A stretch of 37,298 nucleotides of DNA from a virus (Duplodnaviria; Heunggongvirae; Uroviricota; Caudoviricetes). Positions 1,449 to 11,584 of the stretch are shown here, piece by piece. Position 1 is the stretch's first letter, and every line of letters starts with the position of its first letter. The stretch lies in IMG/VR virus record IMGVR_UViG_2737471849_000005, one strand, 5' to 3'. The notes below the pieces were generated by a model. It made no database searches, was not told the DNA's origin, and saw nothing but the letters and a program-made list of their open reading frames with translations. Position numbers and translations under genes: made by a program.

Positions 1449-2105
1449 CTATTTAACATACTTGACTGTTAAACTTATAATTTTACCAATTATTTCAATG
1501 TCTTCTATCTTGCATTCGAAGGCTCTGTTTCCACCCTCGACGAAGATTCTTCCACCGGGTAAACGAGTAATGTCACGGATCGTTATTTCGCCATCAATAC
1601 TTATTACCCATTTACCATCACGTATATCATCAAATTCTTTATCACAAATAAATTCAGAATTGTTATCTGTGATGACAAAAGGTTTTTTAAACGTAGAGGG
1701 TAGAAATCCCTTATCAAAAATATAAAAACCGTCTTTCTGCAATGCTCCATCAGACAATAAATATTTTTCTACTTCTATAGTATTTGTATTTGCTGATGCT
1801 TGCTTTGAACCATGCCCTGTTGTTAGCCAATTAAGCGAGGTGCCCGTTTCAAGGGCGCACTGGATTACCCAATCTGCTGGAAAAATATCACGCATATAGC
1901 GCGTTGCCATAGTGCTCTTAGAAACACCTAAATGATCACAGAGAGCCTGACGAGTACCGAACCCATATGCTTCAACTAAACGTTCTATGGCTTTCTTACC
2001 GCCGCTATTGAAATCCACAAGTCCTCCAAAGAAATCCAAAATTCGTTGACAGATTCCAAAAGCGATCTTAAAGTTGAACCAGAAGTGTTCTTTTGGAGCC
2101 TTCAC
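1449..2105 (-). CDS. cI: CI-like immunity repressor (186 CI type, HTH N-domain)
   Basis: The translation contains EAYGFG...CALETG.SLNWLTTG and a C-terminal ...RLPGG...ECKIEDIEIIG that resemble phage 186 CI. It is divergent from apl. The exact start is uncertain. Confidence 0.75.
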   Translation of the reverse strand: MKAPKEHFWFNFKIAFGICQRILDFFGGLVDFNSGGKKAIERLVEAYGFGTRQALCDHLGVSKSTMATRYMRDIFPADWVIQCALETGTSLNWLTTGHGSKQASANTNTIEVEKYLLSDGALQKDGFYIFDKGFLPSTFKKPFVITDNNSEFICDKEFDDIRDGKWVISIDGEITIRDITRLPGGRIFVEGGNRAFECKIEDIEIIGKIISLTVKYVK

Positions 2106-2163
2106 TACTAATCACGACAAACAACGGCTCGCCACAAGCCATATCTAGAAGGAATGTTGCCTT

Positions 2164-2367
2164 ATGACACCTAACATTTCAATTACTCTGAATACACCAC
2201 ATGTCACAATCGAACGTTATAGCGAACTGACTGGCCTTTCTATTGATACGATTAACGACATGTTGGCTGATGGCCGACTACCTCGTCATCGTCTTCGTAA
2301 AGACAAAAAACGTGAAAAGGTAATGATTAACCTGGCTGCTCTGACTGTTGATGCTTTGTCTGCTTAA
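2164..2367 (+). CDS. apl: Apl/Cox-like excisionase-regulator (67 aa)
   Basis: A small basic protein encoded divergently from the repressor, in the position of P2 cox and 186 apl. Confidence 0.75.
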
Positions 2368-2422
2368 TAGACGTCTATTTTCGCAATAAGACGCTGAGTT
2401 CGATTTTGCGATAAGTTCGGAG

Positions 2423-2941
2423 TTGAAAACCATGTTTGATTACCAAGTTTCCAAACATCCACATTTTGATGAAGCCTGTCGTGCATTCGCACTGCGCCAC
2501 AATCTGGTGCAACTGGCAGAACGTGCGGGCATGAATGTGCAGATTCTGCGGAACAAGCTGAACCCAGCTCAACCTCATTTATTAACCGCACCAGAAATCT
2601 GGCTGCTTACCGATCTGACTGAAGATTCAACGTTGGTAGATGGTTTTCTGGCACAGATTCATTGTCTGCCATGTGTACCGATTAATGAGGTAGCAAAAGA
2701 GAAACTGCCACATTACGTCATGAGTGCAACCGCAGAGATCGGGCGTGTTGCTGCAGGTGCGGTATCTGGCGATGTAAAAACCAGTGCAGGTCGTCGTGAT
2801 GCTATCAGCAGCATTAACTCTGTAACACGACTGATGGCGCTGGCGGCTGTTTCATTGCAGGCCCGTTTACAGGCTAATCCTGCGATGGCGAGTGCAGTTG
2901 ATACCGTGACTGGCCTCGGTGCTTCATTCGGTTTGCTGTGA
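2423..2941 (+). CDS. cII: CII-like lysogeny establishment regulator (186 CII family)
   Basis: A 172-aa ORF directly after apl, with an N-terminal HTH-like region. Size and position fit 186 CII. Confidence 0.7.
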
Positions 2942-2948
2942 GGTGCTT

Positions 2949-3245
2949 ATGCTGACGAAAGAACCATCATTTGCGTCGCTGCTGGTAAAACAAAGTCCGG
3001 CAATGCACTACGGTCACGGCTGGATCACGGGTGAGGATGGAAAACGCTGGCATCCATGTCATTCACAAGATGAATTGCTGTCTGAATTGACCACGAGGAA
3101 ACGGAGAAAGTCCAAATGTATGCGGCAGAAAGTGAAGTGGTTTATCAGTTTCGTTACAGAGGGGAGAGTTATTCAGTACCTGAAGATGATTTGCTCTGTT
3201 GCTATCCGTCATTGTCGGGCGATGGCAGTTACTTTTTCACGTTAA
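2949..3245 (+). CDS. Hypothetical early protein, possibly Fil-like
   Basis: An ORF starting at the ATG at 2949. It overlaps the next ORF by about 130 nt in another frame, so its 3' end is uncertain. Confidence 0.4.
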   Translation: MLTKEPSFASLLVKQSPAMHYGHGWITGEDGKRWHPCHSQDELLSELTTRKRRKSKCMRQKVKWFISFVTEGRVIQYLKMICSVAIRHCRAMAVTFSR

Positions 3246-3340
3246 AGGATGGGACGTTTTTACGGGGAGAGCAGGTTAAAGAGACGATACGAAAAAATGT
3301 ATCTCCTCTTGAGCGTTACCGTAAGAACAAAGAACGATAG
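3116..3340 (+). CDS. Hypothetical early protein (74 aa)
   Basis: A GGAG RBS lies about 9 nt upstream of the ATG at 3116, and the ORF reads cleanly. Confidence 0.5.
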   Translation: MYAAESEVVYQFRYRGESYSVPEDDLLCCYPSLSGDGSYFFTLKDGTFLRGEQVKETIRKNVSPLERYRKNKER

Positions 3341-3362
3341 CTGCGTTTGGGGGATATGAAGT

Positions 3363-3704
3363 ATGGCAATTAATGGCGCTGCAGCAACTGTTCCATTAAG
3401 CCCCGGTGAACGCCTGAATGGACTTAATCACATTGCGGAGTTAAGGGCGAAAGTTTTTGGCATGAATATTGAGTCAGAGCTTGAGCGGTTTATTAAAGAT
3501 ATGCGTGATCCACGGGATATCAATAATGAACAAAATAAACGGGCACTGGCTGCCATATTCTTTATGGCAAAAATTCCAGCTGAACGTCATAGCATCAGCA
3601 TTAATGAGCTGACCACTGACGAAAAGCGGGAGCTGATTAAAGCAATGAATCATTTTCGTGCAGTGGTGAGCTTATTTCCCAGACGGCTAACCATGCCGAA
3701 TTAA
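3363..3704 (+). CDS. Hypothetical phage early protein (113 aa)
   Basis: A co-oriented ORF in the early operon. Confidence 0.55.
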   Translation: MAINGAAATVPLSPGERLNGLNHIAELRAKVFGMNIESELERFIKDMRDPRDINNEQNKRALAAIFFMAKIPAERHSISINELTTDEKRELIKAMNHFRAVVSLFPRRLTMPN

Positions 3705-3771
3705 CCAACTAATGAAATTAATGGCGTAAACCCGCCGGGCATCCCTTTATCTAAATTCAGGAGAATTGATT

Positions 3772-4005
3772 ATGCGTAATATTGAAACCCTCACGACTAA
3801 AACCGGACCGGATGATGCAGGGCTTAATATTTTACTGACAGAGGCTCGTCTGGAAGAACGCCGGGCAAGGGCTGAAGCAATGGCAGCTCGCCTTGATAAC
3901 CTGGCGTGTCATATCACATCCCGCCAACTAAACCACGTCGAAGCGGCAGAACTGCTGCGTGTGACTGCTGAAGCAATCCAGAACGAAGCGCAGGAGATCC
4001 ACTGA
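3772..4005 (+). CDS. Hypothetical phage early protein (78 aa)
   Basis: An AGGAG RBS lies 8 nt upstream of the ATG at 3772. The track's earlier start at 3766 is a TTG. Confidence 0.55.
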   Translation: MRNIETLTTKTGPDDAGLNILLTEARLEERRARAEAMAARLDNLACHITSRQLNHVEAAELLRVTAEAIQNEAQEIH

Positions 4006-4232
4006 TGGCTGATGCAATGGATCTCGTACAGCAGCGAGTTGAAGAAGAACGCCAACGTCATATCCGTGCTGCCCGTGCCAAAACGCCGGGCGTGTCCCGC
4101 GTGCTTTGCGTTGAGTGTGAAGCGCCAATTCCGCCAGCACGCCGCCGTGCCATTCCGGGGGTGCAGCTTTGCATTACCTGTCAGGAAATCGCAGAGCTGA
4201 AAGGCAAACATTACAACGGAGGTGCTGTATGA
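4005..4232 (+). CDS. TraR/DksA-family C4 zinc-finger protein (P2 orf82-like)
   Basis: The translation has a CVECEAPIP...CITC four-cysteine motif typical of phage TraR-like proteins. Confidence 0.75.
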   Translation: MADAMDLVQQRVEEERQRHIRAARAKTPGVSRVLCVECEAPIPPARRRAIPGVQLCITCQEIAELKGKHYNGGAV

Positions 4233-5086
4233 GCACCATCCTGAAATGGGCGGGAAATAAAACCGCCATTATGTCCGAACTGAAAAAACACCTTCCTGCT
4301 GGCCCGCGACTGGTTGAACCTTTCGCGGGTTCCTGTGCTGTGATGATGGAGACGGATTACCCCAGCTATCTGGTTGCGGATATTAATCCTGATTTAATCA
4401 ACCTCTATAAAAAGGTTGCTGCTGATTGTGAATCGTTTATATCTCGCGCCAGAGTTTTATTTGAGATCGCAAACAGGGAGGTGGCTTATTACAACATAAG
4501 GCAGGAGTTTAATTACTCCACTGAAATTACTGATTTCATGAAAGCGGTATATTTCCTGTATCTCAATCGTCACGGTTACCGTGGTTTATGTCGCTATAAC
4601 AAGAGCGGGCATTTCAACATTCCCTACGGTAATTATAAAAATCCGTATTTCCCTGAAAAAGAAATTCGCGCATTTGCAGAAAAGGCCCAGCGAGCAACGT
4701 TTATCTGCGCCAGCTTTGATGAAACGCTGGCGATGTTGAAGGCGGGGGATGTGGTGTATTGCGATCCGCCGTATGACGGTAAGTTTTCCGGCTATCACAC
4801 TGATGGTTTCACTGAAGATGACCAGTATCACCTGGCATCTGTTCTTGAACATCGGTCATCAGAAGGACATCCGGTCATTGTTTCTAACAGTGACACATCC
4901 CTGATCCGTTCGCTGTATCGCAATTTTACTCATCACTACATCAAGGCAAAACGCAGCATCGGTGTGGCAGCTGGCGAGGGTAAATCAGCAACAGAAATCA
5001 TTGCTGTTTCCGGGCCGCGCTGCTGGGTGGGATTTGATTATTCGCGTGGCGTGGATAGTTCTGCCGTGTACGGAGTACGTGCATGA
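4229..5086 (+). CDS. dam: DNA adenine methyltransferase (Dam-like, GATC type)
   Basis: The translation has the N-terminal [11 protein letters not shown]...PFAGS motif and the DPPY catalytic motif (VYCDPPYDG). Its start overlaps the TraR stop and its stop overlaps the A start (ATGA). Confidence 0.85.
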
Positions 5087-7497
5087 GCCATGCCGATATG
5101 AACAACTGCTGCGGCTTTAACGAGGCTGCCGCATCGTTCTCATGGAACAGCCCGAAAAAGGCCATTAACCCTTATCTGGACCCGGCGGAAGTTGCGCCGG
5201 TTTCTGCACTTTCAAACCTGATCACTCTGTACGCTGTCGATAACGAGCAGGAACAGCTGCGCCGCGAGGCACTGAGTGATCAGGTCTGGGAGCGTTATTT
5301 CTTTAATGAATCCCGTGATCCTGTCCAGCGCGAAATGGAGCAGGATAAGCTCATTAGTCGGGCAAGGCTGGCGCATGAGCAGCAGCGTTTTAATCCAGAT
5401 ATGGTCATTCTGGCGGACGTCAATGCCCAGCCTTCCCATATCAGCAAGCCGCTGATGCAACGTATTGAATACTTCAGCAGCCTTGGCAGGCCAAAGGCTT
5501 ATTCCCGCTATTTGCGTGAGACGATTAAGCCATGTCTGGAACGGCTGGAGCATGTACGCGACAGTCAGCTATCCACTTCTTTTCGCTTTATGGCAAGCCA
5601 TGAAGGGCTGGACGGCCTGCTGATTCTGCCTGAAATGAGTCAGGATCAGGTGAAACGCCTGTCCACCCTTGTTGCTGCGCATATGAGCATGTGCCTTGAT
5701 GCAGCTTGTGGCGATTTGTATGCCACCGATGACGTTAAGCCTGAAGAAATCCGCAAGACATGGGAAAAGGTGGCAGCAGAAACCCTTCGACTGGATGTCA
5801 TACCGCCTGCGTTTGAGCAACTCCGCCGGAAAAGAAACCGCCGTAAACCCGTGCCTTATGAACTCATTCCGGGTTCGCTGGCGCGTATGTTGTGCGCCGA
5901 CTGGTGGTACCGGAAATTATGGAAGATGCGTTGCGAATGGCGGGAAGAGCAGTTGCGTGCTGTTTGCCTGGTCAGCAAAAAAGCATCTCCCTATGTCAGC
6001 TATGAAGCCGTGATGCATAAACGTGAGCAGCGCCGTAAGTCGCTGGAGTTTTTCCGTTCTCATGAACTGGTGAACGAAGACGGCGACACGCTGGACATGG
6101 AGGATGTGGTAAACGCCAGCAGCAGCAACCCTGCGCATCGCCGCAATGAGATGATGGCCTGTGTTAAAGGTCTGGAGCTTATCGCGGAAATGCGTGGTGA
6201 CTGCGCCGTTTTCTACACCATCACCTGTCCGTCACGTTTCCATTCCACGCTAAATAACGGCAGGCCCAACCCGACCTGGACAAATACGACGGTAAGACAA
6301 AGCAGTGATTATCTGGTCGGCATGTTTGCTGCATTTCGTAAGGCGATGCACAAAGCCGGATTGCGCTGGTATGGCGTGCGGGTGGCTGAGCCGCATCATG
6401 ACGGTACAGTTCACTGGCACCTGTTGTGTTTTATGCGCAAAAAAGATCGCCGCGCCATTACTGCTTTGTTGCGTAAGTTTGCCATTCGTGAAGACCGCGA
6501 GGAGCTGGGTAATAACACGGGACCACGCTTTAAGTCTGAGCTGATAAACCCGCGCAAAGGTACGCCAACAAGCTACATCGCGAAATACATCAGTAAGAAC
6601 ATTGACGGGCGTGGTCTGGCTGGCGAGATCAGCAAGGAAACGGGTAAATCCCTGCGTGATAACGCTGAATACGTTAATGCCTGGGCGTCTCTGCATCGTG
6701 TTCAGCAATTCCGCTTCTTTGGCATTCCGGGGCGTCAGGCTTACCGTGAACTGCGATTGCTGGCTGGTCAGGCGGCAAGGCAACAGGGGGACAAAAAAGC
6801 AGGTGCGCCGGTACTGGATAACCCGCGCCTTGATGCAATCCTGGCTGCTGCTGATGCTGGTTGTTTTGCCACCTACATCATGAAGCAGGGCGGCGTACTG
6901 GTTCCCCGCAAATATCACCTCATCAGAACTGCTTATGAAATCAACGAAGAACCGACCGCATATGGCGATCACGGTATTCGTATTTATGGCATCTGGTCAC
7001 CCATTGCAGAGGGCAAGATCTGCACTCATGCGGTGAAGTGGAAAATGGTTCGTAAGGCCGTTGACGTTCAGGAGGCGGCAGCCGACCAGGGCGCTTGCGC
7101 CCCTTGGACTCGTGGCAATAACTGTCCCCTTGCTGAAAATTTGAACCAACAGGAGAAAGATAAATCAGCTGATGGGGACCCCAGAACGGACTTTACCCGC
7201 ATGGATGACAAGGAGTTGCACGATTACCTGCACAGTATGAACAAAAAGGAGCGCCGGGAACTGGCTGCAAGGTTACGTCTGGTGAAACCGAAACGGCGTA
7301 GAGACTACAAACAGCGAATTACAGACCATCAACGACAGCAGCTCGTCTATGAACTGAAATCCAGAGGATTTGATGGCAGCGAGAAAGAGGTCGATTTACT
7401 CCTTCGCGGCGGCAGTATTCCGTCAGGAGCAGGCCTGCGTATCTTCTATCGGAACCAGCGTTTGCAGGAAGATGATCAGTGGCGGAACCTGTATTAA
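5083..7497 (+). CDS. A: Replication initiation protein A (rolling-circle initiator, P2 gpA / 186 A family)
   Basis: An 804-aa ORF at the position of gene A, containing an HWHLL-like motif. Confidence 0.85.
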
Positions 7498-7591
7498 TTA
7501 CGCTGGTTAACAATTCGTGCTCTTAATAATACCAGGCATATCAGGCTGATAAGCGTAAAAAAACGTTTTACATCAGTAAGATTATTATATA

Positions 7592-7607
7592 CTGTAAATA
7601 TAAACAG
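7592..7607 (+). promoter_or_regulatory. LexA (SOS) box CTGT-N8-ACAG overlapping a putative promoter
   Basis: The sequence tactgtaaatataaacagtg at 7590-7609 closely matches the LexA consensus TACTGTATATATATACAGTA. It lies about 45 bp upstream of the ORF at 7650, with a TATACT -10-like hexamer adjacent. Confidence 0.65.
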
Positions 7608-7649
7608 TGGTTATGTATACAGTATTGCTTTGGTGTCATAGGAGGAAAG

Positions 7650-7838
7650 ATGCAGGACTATTTTTTGGAGTCTTTGAAGCTCCAGCGCATTGATTTTTTT
7701 CTTAAGCTTGTAGCGGCTAGTGAGTGTAGTGATGAAGAGAAGGGGCTGGCTCTGCAGTGGGTTTCTGAACTGACAGATGAACTCATGGCAAAAATCAGAA
7801 GCCACGAATACAACCGCTCAATGGATGTCATCAGCTGA
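7650..7838 (+). CDS. Small SOS-controlled protein (62 aa), possibly the N-terminal part of a Tum-like antirepressor
   Basis: An AGGAGG RBS precedes the ATG. It is the first ORF downstream of the LexA box. Confidence 0.5.
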   Translation: MQDYFLESLKLQRIDFFLKLVAASECSDEEKGLALQWVSELTDELMAKIRSHEYNRSMDVIS

Positions 7839-7848
7839 GGTGACTTTT

Positions 7849-8082
7849 ATGCGCATTGAAATAATGATCGATAAAGAGCAGAAGATTAGCCAGTCTACCC
7901 TGGACGCCCTTGAATCCGAGCTTTACCGCAATCTGCGCCCCCTGTATCCCAAAACGGTAATCCGTATCCGTAAAGGTAGCTCTAACGGTGTGGAACTGAC
8001 CGGACTGCAACTGGACGAAGAAAGAAAACAAGTGATGAAAATTATGCAGAAGGTGTGGGAAGACGACAGCTGGCTGCATTGA
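7849..8082 (+). CDS. DinI-like protein (77 aa)
   Basis: The translation MRIEIMIDKEQ...LDALESELYRNL...KIMQKVWEDDSWLH follows the DinI pattern (MRIEV..I.K...ALE.EL.RR...I..I.QE.WE..D.W). Confidence 0.75.
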   Translation: MRIEIMIDKEQKISQSTLDALESELYRNLRPLYPKTVIRIRKGSSNGVELTGLQLDEERKQVMKIMQKVWEDDSWLH

Positions 8083-8195
8083 TTTTGTCAATAGACGCTT
8101 GTTTTTACTAATCAAAAAGGGTTACATATGAGTGAGAGGCGATGTCAATCAGATATCGCCTTGTTTTTTGTCAAGAAAAGAATAATAGGCTAAAA

Positions 8196-8873
8196 ATGAA
8201 AATTAATAATGTAGCGTTACCAATATCTCTTGCTGTAATCCTAACTGGTTGCGTGCCACATGCTTCTAACCGAAATATCACTGCTATTGAAGTGGTGAAG
8301 CCTGCTATTGGGCAAAGTGCTACCGCCTACATGGGCGATCCCATTATCACATCTGCTACTGGATTTAAAACGGACGTACTAGAACTTGGTGCGGCTAATG
8401 GTGCATTGTCTTCTATCGCTGCTGGTACATATTGCAGTGAGGGGAATGGAATTTACCGCAATTATCATAACCCTCAAGCTGTTGCGTTAAAAAATCTCTA
8501 TGGGCAAATCGGTAACTATGTTGATTATGTTAGTTACGATGCTGCAAAAAATGAGATATCACCGCCAAATGGTACTTCTTATACTGCATCAGAAATTTCT
8601 ATCAAACGTGTTCCTGATGGGCTGTGTCGAGTTAGTAACTCATTGGTTAAGACTATCGAATACAATGGAAATGCAGGCGGTGTAATGAAGTTCACCTATC
8701 GTGAATTTGCAAACGATATGGCTCGTGCAGCATTTACAACAGATTTTTCTGTAGATTCTAAGGGAAGTGACGTTATCGCTTACAAAGGTGCCAAGTTCAA
8801 AGTGAACAAGGCTGATAACTCGTCTATTTCTTATACAATTATTTCTGGCTTTGACAAGGCTGTCACGTTCTAG
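8196..8873 (+). CDS. Predicted lipoprotein (226 aa), unknown function
   Basis: The N-terminus MKINNVALPISLAVILTGC carries a lipobox (LTGC). The gene is AT-rich, and the protein is Gly/Ser/Thr-rich and ends in Phe. Confidence 0.6.
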   Translation: MKINNVALPISLAVILTGCVPHASNRNITAIEVVKPAIGQSATAYMGDPIITSATGFKTDVLELGAANGALSSIAAGTYCSEGNGIYRNYHNPQAVALKNLYGQIGNYVDYVSYDAAKNEISPPNGTSYTASEISIKRVPDGLCRVSNSLVKTIEYNGNAGGVMKFTYREFANDMARAAFTTDFSVDSKGSDVIAYKGAKFKVNKADNSSISYTIISGFDKAVTF

Positions 8874-8976
8874 GTTTCACGCTTACTGAGTATGTTACGA
8901 TTTTGCACATTCTGCATAAACGCGCATGTCTATGCTGCATGAGATCGCATGATCGTTTGAGGATCTTTTGTGTTAA

Positions 8977-9002
8977 GGCCCGCCAGTTCTGGCGGGCTTT
9001 TG
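8977..9002 (+). terminator. Rho-independent terminator downstream of the lipoprotein gene
   Basis: A GC-rich hairpin (gcccgcc...ggcgggc) is followed by TTTT. Confidence 0.5.
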
Positions 9003-9046
9003 CGTAGATCATGCAGGTGCATGAAAACCACTACATAAAGCGGGCA

Positions 9047-9065
9047 GGCGTGGCGGGGATACGAG
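9047..9065. other. cos-like sequence (candidate cohesive-end site)
   Basis: The sequence GGCGTGGCGGGGATACGAG resembles the P2/186 19-nt cohesive end as I recall it (GGCG(A/T)GGCGGGGAAAGCA-). About 13 of 19 positions match. Confidence 0.35.
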
Positions 9066-9198
9066 CGCGCGTTATGACAAATAGATGATTAGCCTGATTT
9101 ATTCACAGCTGTATAAATGATCACCTTGTAATTAGGTAAGTAATGTCTTCTATTATCATTGATTTGATAGGATTAATCTGTTTTTTGAGGATTAGAGG

Positions 9199-11535
9199 AT
9201 GATTGAAGAGGTAGTTATTGACAAAGTAGGCTCATATAATGGCCCTACTCAGCTTTTACATGGGCTTTCTAAATTTAACTATTTATATGGAGCTAATGGT
9301 GCAGGTAAAACAACTATAAGTAAAATTATTAATGACCCTGAACAATATCCAACATGTCCGATTAAATGGAAAAATAATATATCTTTAATAAGCTACGTAT
9401 ATAATAAAGATTTTGTTGAAAGAAATTTTAGTCAAGATAAAATTAAAGGTGTATTTACCCTTGGTAGCGATCTTAAGGAGGATGAAGAGAAACTAATATC
9501 TCTTGAAGAAGAAAAAAATAAGCTAATAGAATCTATTATAGCAAAGGAAAAGCTAATAGATGGTGGTGATAATATATTAGGCGTTGTTAAACAAATCGAA
9601 GACCATGAAAAATCTTTTAAAGATTCATGTTGGAAGCAAAAAGTAAAACATGATAATGTGTTCTCAAAGGCTTTTGAGGGATTAAGGAATAGTAGTGAAA
9701 AATTTAAAGCTAGAGTGTTGGCTGAGTATGAAAATAACACATCAGAAGTTTGCTCAATAGCAGAGCTAATTGAGAAAGCAAAAATTGTTTTTTCTACTGA
9801 ATTGACATCACATGTATCAATTACAATTCCATCCTTCAATGGGATAGATGATATTTTGAGTAGGGAGATTTGGAGTGAGCGTATTCTAGGGAAAAAAGAC
9901 GTTAGTGTTTCAGACTTAATTACAATGCTCAATAACAGTGATTGGGTTAAGGAAGGTTTAACATATTTCAGTAAATCTAATCCCAAGTGCCCATTCTGCC
10001 AGCAGGATGTAAATGATAATATATTTGATAATCTATCATCATATTTTGATAAAACATATGAGTTAAAAAAAAGAGAAATCGATGCATTGGTTTTACAATA
10101 TGAACATCAACTTAATAATATCTTGCAGGCGATAGATGATATAAGGGCGATTAAATCTCCATTCATAAATTATGAAGTATTTGAGGATAAGGCTAAGATA
10201 GTATTATCTGAATTAAACAAGAATTTTGAATTGGCAAAAAATAAACGCAATTTTTTAAGTGAATCAGTTCATTTTAGTGACTTAAGTGAAGTTGTTGATG
10301 ATTTTATTTCTTTTTTGAATGATTCAAATCTATTGATAGATAATAATAACAAAATACACAGTAATAGAAAGGTAGAGGCTAGTAATCTTTCTAATCAGAT
10401 ATGGGCATATATCGTAAAGGTGGAGTTAAAGTCTGAAATAACTTCTTACCGTAGCGAATCTGATAAATTTAATAGGAAGTTACAAGGACTTAAATCTGGG
10501 TTAGAGGAAGACAAAAAGAAGTTAATGTTAAATGCTTCGGCTATTGAGGCAATTGAGTCTAATAAAACCAGTACTCTTCCAACTATTACAAAAATTAACA
10601 AGATTCTGGATTCTTATGGCTTCAAAAATTTTTACTTAAAACCCTCCGAAGATAAAAAGCATTATATGATAGTGAGAGATAGTGGAGATAATGCTCGTAC
10701 AACCCTTAGCGAGGGAGAAAAGACATTTATCACTTTTTTGTATTTTTATAGCCTTGTTAGAGGGAGTGATAATGCATCAGGTGTTTTAGATGATCGTGTT
10801 GTAGTATTTGATGATCCAATTTCAAGTTTAGATAGTGATATTCTGTTTATTGTAAGTTCGTTGATTAAAGATTTAATGGAGGATGTTCGTAAGGATGAAG
10901 GAAATATTAAGCAAATTATATTCCTTACACATAATATTTATTTTCATAAAGAGTTGACTTTTAATACTAAAAGATCCGGTAATCAAGCAATGAAAGAGGA
11001 GACTTTTTGGATTGTAAGGAAAAAAGGGAAGGTCTCATATCTTGAAAAGTGCGAATCAAACCCAATAAAAACGTCTTATGATTTGCTCTGGTGCGAATTG
11101 AGAAGAACAGATATTAATAATAATACTATACAAAATACAATGCGAAGGATTTTGGAGAATTACTTTAAGATATTAGGTGGGATGGATATTAGGAAGCTTG
11201 AATGTCATTTTTATGGTGATGAAAAAATCATATTTAAATCTTTAGTGTCATGGATTAATGATGGTTCTCATTTTGCAGGTGATGATCTTTATATGAATTT
11301 AGATACGGAGTCTGTGCAAAAATATTTAATTGTTTTTCAGAAGATATTTGAGTGTAGTGAGCATACTGCCCATTACAAAATGATGATGGGTGAGTTTTAT
11401 AGACCGTTAAATGAGTCACTTCATCTACAAGATGAGTTTGATATTGATGATAGTGCGAATGATGAGTATGCTTCGTCAAAAATTGAGATAGAAGATGGAA
11501 TAAACACATCTCTACATAGCAATACATATTTGTAA
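9199..11535 (+). CDS. ABC/Rad50-like ATPase (778 aa), RloC/PrrC-like; candidate anti-phage defence protein
   Basis: The translation has Walker A GANGAGKTT, ABC-signature-like LSEGEK, Walker B/D-loop VVVFDDPISSLD and H-loop FLTHN. A long Lys/Glu-rich insert contains CPFC. The C-terminal region has RRILE (R-x3-E) and RKLECH (R-x4-H). The gene is very AT-rich. Confidence 0.7.
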   Translation: MIEEVVIDKVGSYNGPTQLLHGLSKFNYLYGANGAGKTTISKIINDPEQYPTCPIKWKNNISLISYVYNKDFVERNFSQDKIKGVFTLGSDLKEDEEKLISLEEEKNKLIESIIAKEKLIDGGDNILGVVKQIEDHEKSFKDSCWKQKVKHDNVFSKAFEGLRNSSEKFKARVLAEYENNTSEVCSIAELIEKAKIVFSTELTSHVSITIPSFNGIDDILSREIWSERILGKKDVSVSDLITMLNNSDWVKEGLTYFSKSNPKCPFCQQDVNDNIFDNLSSYFDKTYELKKREIDALVLQYEHQLNNILQAIDDIRAIKSPFINYEVFEDKAKIVLSELNKNFELAKNKRNFLSESVHFSDLSEVVDDFISFLNDSNLLIDNNNKIHSNRKVEASNLSNQIWAYIVKVELKSEITSYRSESDKFNRKLQGLKSGLEEDKKKLMLNASAIEAIESNKTSTLPTITKINKILDSYGFKNFYLKPSEDKKHYMIVRDSGDNARTTLSEGEKTFITFLYFYSLVRGSDNASGVLDDRVVVFDDPISSLDSDILFIVSSLIKDLMEDVRKDEGNIKQIIFLTHNIYFHKELTFNTKRSGNQAMKEETFWIVRKKGKVSYLEKCESNPIKTSYDLLWCELRRTDINNNTIQNTMRRILENYFKILGGMDIRKLECHFYGDEKIIFKSLVSWINDGSHFAGDDLYMNLDTESVQKYLIVFQKIFECSEHTAHYKMMMGEFYRPLNESLHLQDEFDIDDSANDEYASSKIEIEDGINTSLHSNTYL

Positions 11536-11584
11536 TTTTATTGCAATTGCCAGTAGCAACAATACGGTACTGGCAACTAATATT

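Follow-up and report, generated by a model that had tools for sequence, protein, structure and literature searches.

The window analysed here, a stretch of 37,298 nucleotides, holds a 186/Fels-2-type P2-like prophage of E. coli, whose early operon runs in the order apl-cII-fil-DUF5347-DUF2732-traR-dam-A. A sequence-only reading of this DNA had placed a Dam-like methyltransferase between a TraR-like gene and replication gene A, with stop and start codons overlapping on both sides, and each of these points is borne out. The upstream neighbour, on the + strand like the other two genes, encodes a TraR/DksA-like C4 zinc-finger protein of 75 amino acids (4005..4232; PF01258 zf-dskA_traR, E=4.4e-11; TIGR02419, 67.1 bits, cutoff 59.7). 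The downstream neighbour is gene A itself, encoding a rolling-circle nickase of 804 amino acids (5083..7497; PF05840 Phage_GPA, E=4.4e-127). Between them lies dam (4229..5086), an open reading frame (ORF) of 285 codons that starts with ATG at 4229-4231 and stops with TGA at 5084-5086. The longest possible ORF would begin at a TTG at 4169; the dam homologues all begin with the same 11-residue N-terminus, and a GGAGG at 4218-4222 lies 6 nt 5' of the ATG. The traR-like stop codon (TGA, 4230-4232) overlaps the dam ATG in the tetranucleotide ATGA, and the gene A ATG at 5083 overlaps the dam stop codon in a second ATGA, with the gene A Shine-Dalgarno sequence (GGAG, 5072-5075) situated within the last dam codons.

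The dam product matches Pfam PF02086 from end to end of the profile (1-253 of 253; E=1.4e-76, 258 bits against a cutoff of 22) and scores 321 bits with TIGR00571 'dam' (cutoff 114.85), both well outside what chance would give. The E. coli Dam (EcoDam) structures 2g1p and 4gol match residues 4-263 (E=2.7e-73), DpnM matches residues 4-259 (E=1.9e-33) and T4 Dam matches residues 5-219 (E=3.6e-17), each in a single collinear alignment without permutation. The motif order is thus that of the alpha group, in which the AdoMet-binding region is followed by the target-recognition hairpin and then by the catalytic region. The DPPY motif noted earlier was found at residues 179-182, as catalytic motif IV (codons 4763..4774, + strand); it aligns with EcoDam 181-184 and is at least 90% conserved among 53 aligned homologues. 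One GATC (4763) falls within these codons. The SAM-binding elements are likewise present on alignment: motif X (KWAGxK, here K6-W7-A8-G9-N10-K11), motif I (FxGxG-like, here E30-P-F32-A-G34-S-C) and an acidic motif II residue, D51, aligned with EcoDam D54. Their AdoMet-binding roles we take to be those of the corresponding residues in the EcoDam and T4 Dam structures. Identity to the K-12 Dam is 47%, and equivalents of EcoDam K9, W10, F35, D54, R95, Y119, L122, R124, P134, Y138 and DPPY are all kept, invariant or nearly so in the 53 homologues (71-93% identity). PHROG 56 assigns the protein as 'DNA methyltransferase', and its AlphaFold2 model has a pLDDT of 73. From these alignments, assignment of the product to the Dam family of N6-adenine DNA methyltransferases (D12 class) is firmly supported, and it is probably active as a methyltransferase. 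It shares with EcoDam the fold family, motif order, DPPY, AdoMet-binding residues and most DNA-contact residues; unlike EcoDam, it is encoded in a phage early operon and carries an extra conserved C-terminal tail. An orthologue of the housekeeping Dam (NF008152 / PRK10904) was considered and rejected, given a score of 288 bits against a cutoff of 441 and a prophage context in place of damX-dam-rpe.

Horton et al. reportedly described, in 2006, base-specific contacts of EcoDam with GATC that include K9, L122, R124, P134 and Y138. Out of the eight residues that we take to make up GATC recognition in EcoDam (K9, Y119, N120, L122, R124, P134, R137 and Y138), six are kept in the phage protein; N120 is replaced by R and R137 by N, and the loop that follows DPPY has 5 residues fewer than its EcoDam counterpart. 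Because these two substitutions and the deletion lie near the DNA-contacting region, GATC specificity is not proven, yet it is the most likely specificity. An active enzyme with a target other or broader than GATC would account for the invariant, clade-specific substitutions at 120 and 137 and for the deletion, as well as for the low NF008152 score. This we regard as very unlikely, as all five of the base contacts named above are retained, the 47% identity to EcoDam is far above that between EcoDam and T4 Dam, which is itself GATC-specific, and sibling phages with and without Dam differ, as described below, in GATC specifically.

The enzyme is an orphan, its gene being flanked by the traR-like gene and gpA with no adjacent restriction endonuclease; among PADLOC models it matches 'oMTase' (orphan methyltransferase) best, at E=2.9e-111. 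A Type II restriction-modification system was rejected, there being no endonuclease-like ORF in the operon (2164-7497). Annotated relatives have the same arrangement, likewise without an endonuclease. The Dam proteins of T4/T2 and of P1 (Dmt) are similarly phage-encoded D12-class adenine methyltransferases that lack a cognate endonuclease; the identity of the present protein is only about 22% with T2 Dam and about 36% with the P1 Dam region, and those phages, virulent or plasmid-prophage, carry the gene in other contexts than the P2-like dam. We know of no packaging role of Dam in cos-packaging P2-like phages that is comparable to the one in P1. P1 packaging requires Dam methylation at pac (PMC12707154). 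A literature search for experiments on the phage Dam protein (P2-like/Fels-2, STM2730, ELPhiS/RE-2010) returned genome descriptions only.

The C-terminal tail (residues 264-285; codons 5018..5083, + strand), delimited by alignment with EcoDam, is missing from the E. coli enzyme, and its last codons hold the GGAG of gene A. It bears a clade motif, W-x-G-[FV]-D..D-x-S-V..V-R-A, in which conservation across the 53 homologues is at least 90% at W266, D276 and V283. With an AlphaFold2 pLDDT of about 30 for these residues, the tail is predicted to be disordered. Its sequence varies between lineages. The tail could be a docking peptide through which the methylase is tied to gpA or the replication machinery; alternatively, it may merely be the translated ribosome-binding region of gene A.

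Transcription of dam appears to depend on the early operon as a whole. A promoter-like site, TTGACA-17-TAAAGT (2046..2074, + strand), lies 5' of the apl-like gene (2164..2367) and is a low-confidence candidate, by consensus match only, for the equivalent of the early lytic promoter pR. It is the sole + strand sigma-70-like site ahead of dam, and a + strand scan from 2074 to 8168 gave no further promoter-like site. We infer that dam has no promoter of its own, is silent in the lysogen and is made together with the replication initiator.

Two predicted RNA structures and the overlapping codons bear on how dam and A may be translated. At the dam start (4218..4241, + strand), GGUGCU (4221-4226) can pair with AGCACC (4232-4237) in a predicted hairpin with the GGAGG Shine-Dalgarno sequence as part of its stem and the AUG of dam within its loop. 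The 81-nt fold around this start has a dG of -28.4 kcal/mol (z=-4.27; 0 of 200 shuffles equally stable), and the hairpin also occurs in RE-2010 and Cartapus. Across related dam-start junctions no clear covariation was found, variants mostly weakening the hairpin with no compensating changes, and for this reason the structure stays a prediction; if formed, it may tie the initiation of dam to ribosomes that have completed the traR-like ORF. A second hairpin, CCGGCG-N7-CGCCGG followed by TTTCTGCACTTT (5182..5212, + strand), lies about 100 nt inside gene A, where 186 has its terminator tM1. Its dG of -13.8 (z=-1.3) is not significant alone, and a terminator scan did not pick it up; it is conserved in RE-2010 and Cartapus. 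According to the 186 annotation, tM1 works when A is untranslated, and the hairpin may be the tM1 counterpart, by positional analogy only. The 186 record also states that A translation needs translation to the end of orf84. That record, the ATGA overlaps at both junctions and the near-universal occurrence of ATGA at the dam start among the Peduoviridae lineages sampled together point to translational coupling from traR through dam to A, in analogy with 186.

In line with the earlier reading, neither P2 nor 186 has a methylase at this position. The slot is the same in the early operon of both, its stop and start codons overlapping those of the traR-like gene and of A, and is filled by unrelated proteins: orf83 (DUF5405) in P2, and in 186 an exonuclease-like ORF, a DUF5405 ORF and the PAPS-reductase-like orf84. 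The left junction, up to ATGAGCA, is common to 186 and the window, and the last 11 or so residues of Dam resemble the orf84 tail. A conserved recombination joint with 186 at the right junction was considered and not accepted, since the similarity there (about 20 of 37 nt alike) is too weak to serve as proof. In having no Dam, P2 and 186 are exceptions and are unrepresentative of the family, as a D12 Dam stands directly 5' of gpA in 11 of the 16 Peduoviridae gpA lineages sampled. The Salmonella phage SW5, also of the Peduoviridae, has a Dam, a Dcm and a further 'DNA methylase' stacked 5' of gpA.

This variety at the slot invites the view that dam is mainly a translated spacer bringing ribosomes to A, with an enzyme activity that is dispensable or lost. 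In 186, the quite different orf84 does the same coupling job, and in some relatives A follows directly after the traR-like gene, or after a DUF3850 or PAPS-reductase-like gene. A mere spacer is barely credible, however, for a protein whose catalytic and cofactor-binding residues are invariant in 53 homologues down to 71% identity and whose ORF has stayed intact in over 1200 E. coli genomes; such a pattern marks selection acting on the enzyme.

The gene is already known and has long been annotated, and its arrangement, which many deposited P2-like phages have in their annotation, is not unusual. Its first description is reportedly that of Hsu, Inouye & Inouye in 1990, with retron Ec67. That work is cited in a description of a Klebsiella prophage with the same gene order (PMC7826664), and within the 90%-identity cluster of the protein one member is named 'retron EC67 DNA adenine methylase'. 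The exact protein is found on 657 contigs and is recorded as 'MULTISPECIES: DNA adenine methylase [Enterobacteriaceae]'. Salmonella phage RE-2010, Escherichia phage Cartapus and Klebsiella phages 4LV2017 and KP12 all carry the gene in the same slot, at 97-98.5% DNA identity, with equal length, the same flanking genes and the same 4-nt overlaps; the RE-2010 protein differs from that of the window at 6 of 285 residues. Among Fels-2/RE-2010-type prophages, the cargo 3' of A varies. In complete E. coli genomes, dam occupies this slot in 1239 of 5426 (23%) and the gpA allele of the window occurs in 1236 of the 5426, and from this near-equality dam and gpA would seem to form a tight module.

The prophage contains 111 GATC sites in 34.5 kb, for an observed/expected ratio of 0.83, against 25 sites in P2 (0.19) and 14 in 186 (0.12). 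Along the prophage the regional ratio is 0.82-1.07, making the density uniform. When the 16 palindromes of 4 bp were compared, GATC was the only one to set P2 and 186 apart from the window; CTAG is scarce in each of the four genomes compared. The contrast extends to the single gene, the median number of GATC sites per gpA gene being 9 in the window lineage, 0 in the P2 lineage and 2 in the 186 lineage. Such counter-selection has a proposed cause in enterobacteriophages, namely MutH acting on undermethylated DNA (McClelland 1984; Deschavanne & Radman 1991, as cited in PMC5014478).

A broader comparison was made across 316 IMG/VR loci falling into 16 gpA lineages, 11 of them Dam-carrying and 5 without Dam. 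Median observed/expected GATC in the 11 Dam-carrying lineages is 0.68-1.32, and the three strongly depleted lineages (0.23, 0.34 and 0.45) are all without Dam; the remaining two Dam-less lineages show no depletion (0.87 and 1.39). At the lineage level the association is weak (Mann-Whitney p=0.09, 11 versus 5 lineages). Phage SW5, which bears a different Dam, has a ratio of 1.10. Within the gpA lineage of the window, the 8 scorable dam-minus loci have a median of 0.82, against 0.93 for those with dam (p=0.036). As the dam-minus loci are only slightly poorer in GATC, GATC content could be a lineage trait of other cause, or could lag behind gene loss. Because of this weak separation and the p value of 0.09, we do not claim that Dam causes the GATC content. 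The contrast with P2 and 186 is nevertheless consistent with Dam activity on GATC in lytic growth, and the counts favour a role for the phage Dam in tolerating GATC sites.

We propose, with a probability of roughly 0.7, that the gene encodes an orphan, GATC-specific Dam of the lytic phase, without a partner endonuclease, that keeps replicating phage DNA methylated. Silent in the lysogen, dam would be expressed with the replication initiator from the early lytic operon, with ribosomes passing from the traR-like gene to dam and on to A by way of the ATGA overlaps; by analogy with 186 orf84, translation through dam may be required for A expression. With the extra Dam, the phage GATC sites, roughly 110 in number, would stay fully methylated through rolling-circle replication, so that the DNA might escape nicking or cleavage by MutH and binding by SeqA at un- or hemimethylated GATC, and the packaged DNA might also be shielded from GATC-cutting restriction enzymes. 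The GATC density of this phage lineage could thereby stay close to normal, while P2 and 186, which lack Dam, would have gone through a five- to eight-fold purge of GATC. Phage methyltransferases of the orphan type, silent during lysogeny and protecting exported DNA alone, have been described (PMC12707154). E. coli hosts already own a Dam; that a second enzyme is needed is argued from host Dam being limiting, not observed. Only tentatively do we go further, to the phage Dam as the actual cause of a host-like GATC tolerance, with P2 and 186 purging the site, and to the tail as a possible docking peptide.

The earlier reading had suggested that the enzyme may protect against GATC-targeting restriction or alter the timing of host replication and mismatch repair. 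In the first case its main role would be anti-restriction, progeny DNA being pre-methylated against MboI/DpnII/Sau3AI-class or other methylation-sensitive defences, and protection from MutH or SeqA of the current host would be secondary. We are aware of no prominent threat from m6A-blocked GATC-cutting enzymes in E. coli, Salmonella or Klebsiella, which counts against this role. The known hosts in these genera are moreover Dam+, such that the phage DNA would already be largely methylated at GATC, and a GATC-specific purge in Dam-less siblings is not readily explained by restriction. Anti-restriction is the general view of phage Dam homologues (bioRxiv 10.1101/2020.06.22.160242; PMC12707154), the phage does offer about 110 GATC targets, and methyltransferase stacks 5' of gpA in the Peduoviridae, as in SW5, resemble a broad anti-restriction kit. 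On balance, we consider it doubtful that anti-restriction is the main role.

The second case, which we hold to be unlikely, is one of regulation or host takeover: excess Dam would alter SeqA/oriC sequestration, mismatch repair and Dam-sensitive phage or host promoters, acting as a developmental timer or raising phage mutation and recombination rates. In Salmonella, Dam methylation does affect gene expression and the excision of prophages, the P2-like SopE-phi among them (PMC7380047), and in the window one GATC (2064) falls within the spacer of the early-promoter candidate at 2046-2074 and a GATC triplet (8943-8962) adjoins the cargo region. The uniform density along the prophage speaks against this idea, with neither GATC enrichment nor conserved placement at regulatory sites having been shown, and the idea is not specific to the phage dam.

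As a gene, dam adds nothing new, being routinely annotated. What the comparison brings out is that most of the P2-like lineages sampled have a Dam-family gene directly 5' of the replication initiator, with overlapping stop and start codons. Phage Dam activity triggers some retron defence systems (bioRxiv 10.1101/2020.06.22.160242), and the presence of dam therefore bears on phage-defence interactions. The contrast between the 111 GATC sites of this prophage and those of P2 (25) and 186 (14) provides a convenient system for the study of GATC avoidance in enterobacterial phages, and, if Dam is causal, the P2-like siblings would constitute a natural matched pair for the 40-year-old MutH/SeqA hypothesis of GATC avoidance.

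The + strand open reading frame that the sequence-only reading had placed at 4229..5086, between a TraR-like gene and replication gene A and with stop and start codons overlapping at both ends, proved real in each of these respects. The traR-like gene (4005..4232, +), encoding a TraR/DksA-type C4 zinc-finger protein (PF01258, TIGR02419), closes with a TGA that overlaps the dam ATG to form ATGA; at the other end, the dam TGA (5084-5086) overlaps the ATG at 5083 of gene A (+), which specifies an 804-aa Phage_GPA replication protein (PF05840, E=4.4e-127) and is preceded by GGAG at 5072-5075. The longest possible ORF, called mechanically, begins at TTG 4169; ATG 4229 is the credible start, because GGAGG (4218-4222) lies six bases upstream and because all homologues share the 11-residue N-terminus that follows from it. 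The GC content of dam (46.7%) contrasts with that of traR-like (56.6%) and gene A (52.9%), as would be consistent with a cassette acquired into an older operon frame.

The 285-aa product is almost certainly a Dam-class enzyme. It matches PF02086 (D12-class adenine methyltransferase) from end to end (E=1.4e-76), scores 321 bits against the TIGR00571 'dam' subfamily model, well above the cutoff of 114.85, and aligns collinearly with the solved structures of E. coli Dam (residues 4-263, E=2.7e-73), DpnM (1.9e-33) and T4 Dam (3.6e-17), while scoring below the cutoff of the housekeeping-Dam equivalog NF008152 (288 versus 441). The DPPY motif noticed earlier occupies residues 179-182 (nt 4763-4774), and structure alignments place the motifs in alpha-group order, from the AdoMet-binding region through the recognition hairpin to the catalytic DPPY. 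Direct alignment with K-12 Dam (EcoDam) gives 47% identity. Equivalents of EcoDam K9, W10, F35, D54, R95, Y119, L122, R124, P134, Y138 and DPPY are kept, N120 and R137 are replaced by R and N, five residues are missing after DPPY, and about 20 are added at the C-terminus; the functional roles assigned to these EcoDam residues are those known from published structures. The enzyme is most likely specific for GATC. Among 53 homologues, 71-93% identical, catalytic and cofactor (SAM) residues vary little or not at all, which argues for selection on the enzyme, and this conservation pattern makes an enzyme of altered specificity unlikely. No endonuclease gene was found near dam, and the best PADLOC model for its product is 'orphan methyltransferase'. 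An AlphaFold2 model (mean pLDDT 73) has the expected alternating helix/strand core, with low confidence at residues 119-134 (recognition hairpin), 184-192 (post-DPPY loop) and 264-285 (tail).

This tail (window 5018-5083), a feature of the phage Dam clade absent from E. coli Dam, is predicted to be disordered. The Dam tails of the compared phage loci L011-L327 yield the consensus W-x-G-[FV]-D-x-A-x-G-x-D-x-S-V-x-x-E-V-R-A, with conservation of 90% or more at W266, D276 and V283. The motif is present in distinct Dam lineages, also where gene A is not immediately next, and its last residues resemble the end of 186 orf84 (...CSSVYAGVCE). The tail may serve as an interaction peptide, or may reflect constraint from the gene A ribosome-binding site.

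The surrounding element belongs to the P2-like prophages of 186/Fels-2 type and sits in an E. coli chromosome, adjoining ybjL-ybjM-grxA; the first 25 kb of the window are ~96.5% identical to Klebsiella phage 4LV2017 and relatives. Its genes run int, cI-type repressor, apl-like (2164..2367), cII, a fil-like ORF, DUF5347, DUF2732, traR-like and dam, followed by A, a DinI/Tum-like gene, a low-GC cargo region and the late genes. Since the sole + strand sigma-70-like site before dam lies at 2046-2074, dam is most likely carried by the early lytic transcript and repressed in the lysogen.

The case for translational coupling of dam with its neighbours is circumstantial but coherent. ATGA stands at the dam start in nearly every lineage examined, and 186 has its left junction in common with the window as far as ATGAGCA. 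According to the 186 record, translation of the A protein apparently needs translation to the end of orf84, and a terminator, tM1, which lies some 90 nt into A, is active when A is untranslated. A hairpin and T-rich tract at the equivalent position (5182-5212) is conserved in phages RE-2010 and Cartapus and is not statistically remarkable. A predicted hairpin at 4218-4241 (z=-4.3) would bury the dam Shine-Dalgarno sequence and hold the AUG in its loop; compensatory changes supporting it were not found in related junction variants. That dam is a mere translated spacer for A is unlikely, again because of the conservation pattern.

The cargo region (8116-11560; 33.8% GC), downstream of A and the DinI-like gene, corresponds in position to the tin/old hotspot of P2. 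Encoded there on the + strand are a 243-aa protein with no assigned function (8142-8873; phrog_1353, without a Pfam match) and a 778-aa AAA_13 ATPase (9199-11535), which matches the PADLOC candidate defence system PDC-S06 (E=1.5e-266) and which has weaker similarity to PrrC and LmuB. Between the two genes, a 20-bp span holds three GATC sites (8943, 8951 and 8962), just ahead of a strong hairpin and T-run (about 8976-9003); this triplet could be chance. The retron-Ec67 RT gene reportedly, from work of Hsu et al. in 1990, has three GATC sites in its promoter region.

Phage dam is already known and very common. The same 858-bp gene, at 97-98.5% identity, occurs in Salmonella phage RE-2010, Escherichia phage Cartapus, vB_EcoM-813R9 and Klebsiella phages KP12 and 4LV2017, always between the zinc-finger and replication genes and with identical 4-nt overlaps. 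Among 5426 complete E. coli genomes, 1239 carry dam (annotated 'DNA adenine methylase') and 1236 match the 5' part of the window's gpA allele, so the two move together as a module. Records of the identical protein cover 657 contigs, and its 90%-identity cluster includes an entry called 'retron EC67 DNA adenine methylase'. The same gene order is described in a Klebsiella Fels-2-like prophage (PMC7826664), in a paper that refers to Hsu et al. 1990 for the Dam ORF carried by the 34-kb retron-Ec67 element. Some E. coli records (P0008, P0009, P0094) hold proteins of 456-496 aa in which Dam is fused to a Phage_GPD (late control D) domain, presumably prophage deletion remnants joining dam to gene D.

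As the sequence-only reading suggested, neither P2 nor 186 has a methylase in the slot: P2 has orf83 (DUF5405), and 186 an exonuclease-like ORF, a DUF5405 ORF and the PAPS-reductase-like orf84. These two phages are the exception. When 316 IMG/VR loci were gathered with four gpA queries (window, P2, 186 and a Yersinia phage), and gpA was clustered at 75% identity into 16 lineages, 11 mostly had a D12 Dam upstream of gpA at a distance of no more than 1.3 kb; different Dam branches occur in other lineages. Salmonella phage SW5, from a different Peduoviridae genus (L251 / L008 3170-5300, 8324-9016), has a 327-aa Dam, 41% identical to the window enzyme, with a Cys-rich insertion and a similar ...AAYGVEPF tail; this Dam, a small ORF and a Dcm-type cytosine methyltransferase lie directly upstream of gpA, and a third 'DNA methylase' lies downstream. 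The slot of one IMG/VR relative (L077, 6105-6578) holds a DUF3850-like ORF whose C-terminus contains the Dam-derived KSADEIIAVS, which implies that recombination inside dam replaced most of the gene; in eight other relatives, gene A directly follows traR-like. In Yersinia phage vB_YenM_42.18 (NC_070913; L007 4001-4780), a region directly upstream of gpA is 53.6% protein-identical to the window Dam over 90% of its length; RefSeq gives two short hypothetical proteins, with the gpA CDS beginning inside, and the region is either a disrupted dam or a misannotation.

The GATC count proposed by the sequence-only reading came to 126 in the window and 111 in the prophage part (1-34,500), where the observed/expected ratio is 0.83 from base composition and 0.69 from a Markov estimate, even over all regions. 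P2 has 25 sites (0.19) and 186 has 14 (0.12), a 5-8-fold depletion, and GATC alone of the 16 4-bp palindromes separates these two from the window; the pattern extends to 80-100 IMG/VR relatives of each lineage. CTAG is rare in all four genomes compared, and the Dam-carrying SW5 scores 1.10. Median GATC per gpA gene is 9 in the window lineage, 0 in that of P2 and 2 in that of 186. Among the 16 lineages, those with Dam have medians of 0.68-1.32, and the three strongly depleted ones (0.23, 0.34, 0.45) are all without it. The lineage-level test is weak (p=0.09), and two Dam-less lineages lack depletion; window-lineage loci lacking dam, with A directly after traR-like or a DUF3850 / PAPS-reductase-like gene in the slot, have only slightly lower GATC (0.82 versus 0.93, p=0.036). 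Given these caveats, lineage history or a lag after gene loss may be involved. The contrast is supporting evidence, short of proof, for GATC-directed Dam activity in lytic growth. It matches the classical account of GATC counter-selection in enterobacterial phages, through the action of MutH on replicating DNA that is undermethylated (McClelland 1984; Deschavanne & Radman 1991, both via PMC5014478). With its own Dam, a phage would be free of this pressure.

The best account overall, at a probability of roughly 0.7 that gives enzyme identity and early-operon context more weight than benefit, is an early-operon orphan Dam, probably GATC-specific. Made alongside the replication initiator, it would keep rolling-circle products fully methylated, so that MutH/SeqA action would be avoided and packaged DNA protected. 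This benefit is itself put tentatively, at a little under even odds, and its rivals are that the main role is anti-restriction, or that it is regulatory or one of host takeover. The Sen2 retron defence system is known to be set off by overproduced Dam, whether that of E. coli, Salmonella or P1 (bioRxiv 10.1101/2020.06.22.160242), and dam may therefore cost the phage in some hosts. The interpretation offered by the sequence-only reading is supported, and the arrangement is nothing unusual among P2-like phages; the points that may be worth more work are just the difference in GATC content from P2 and 186 and the conserved, predicted-disordered tail.
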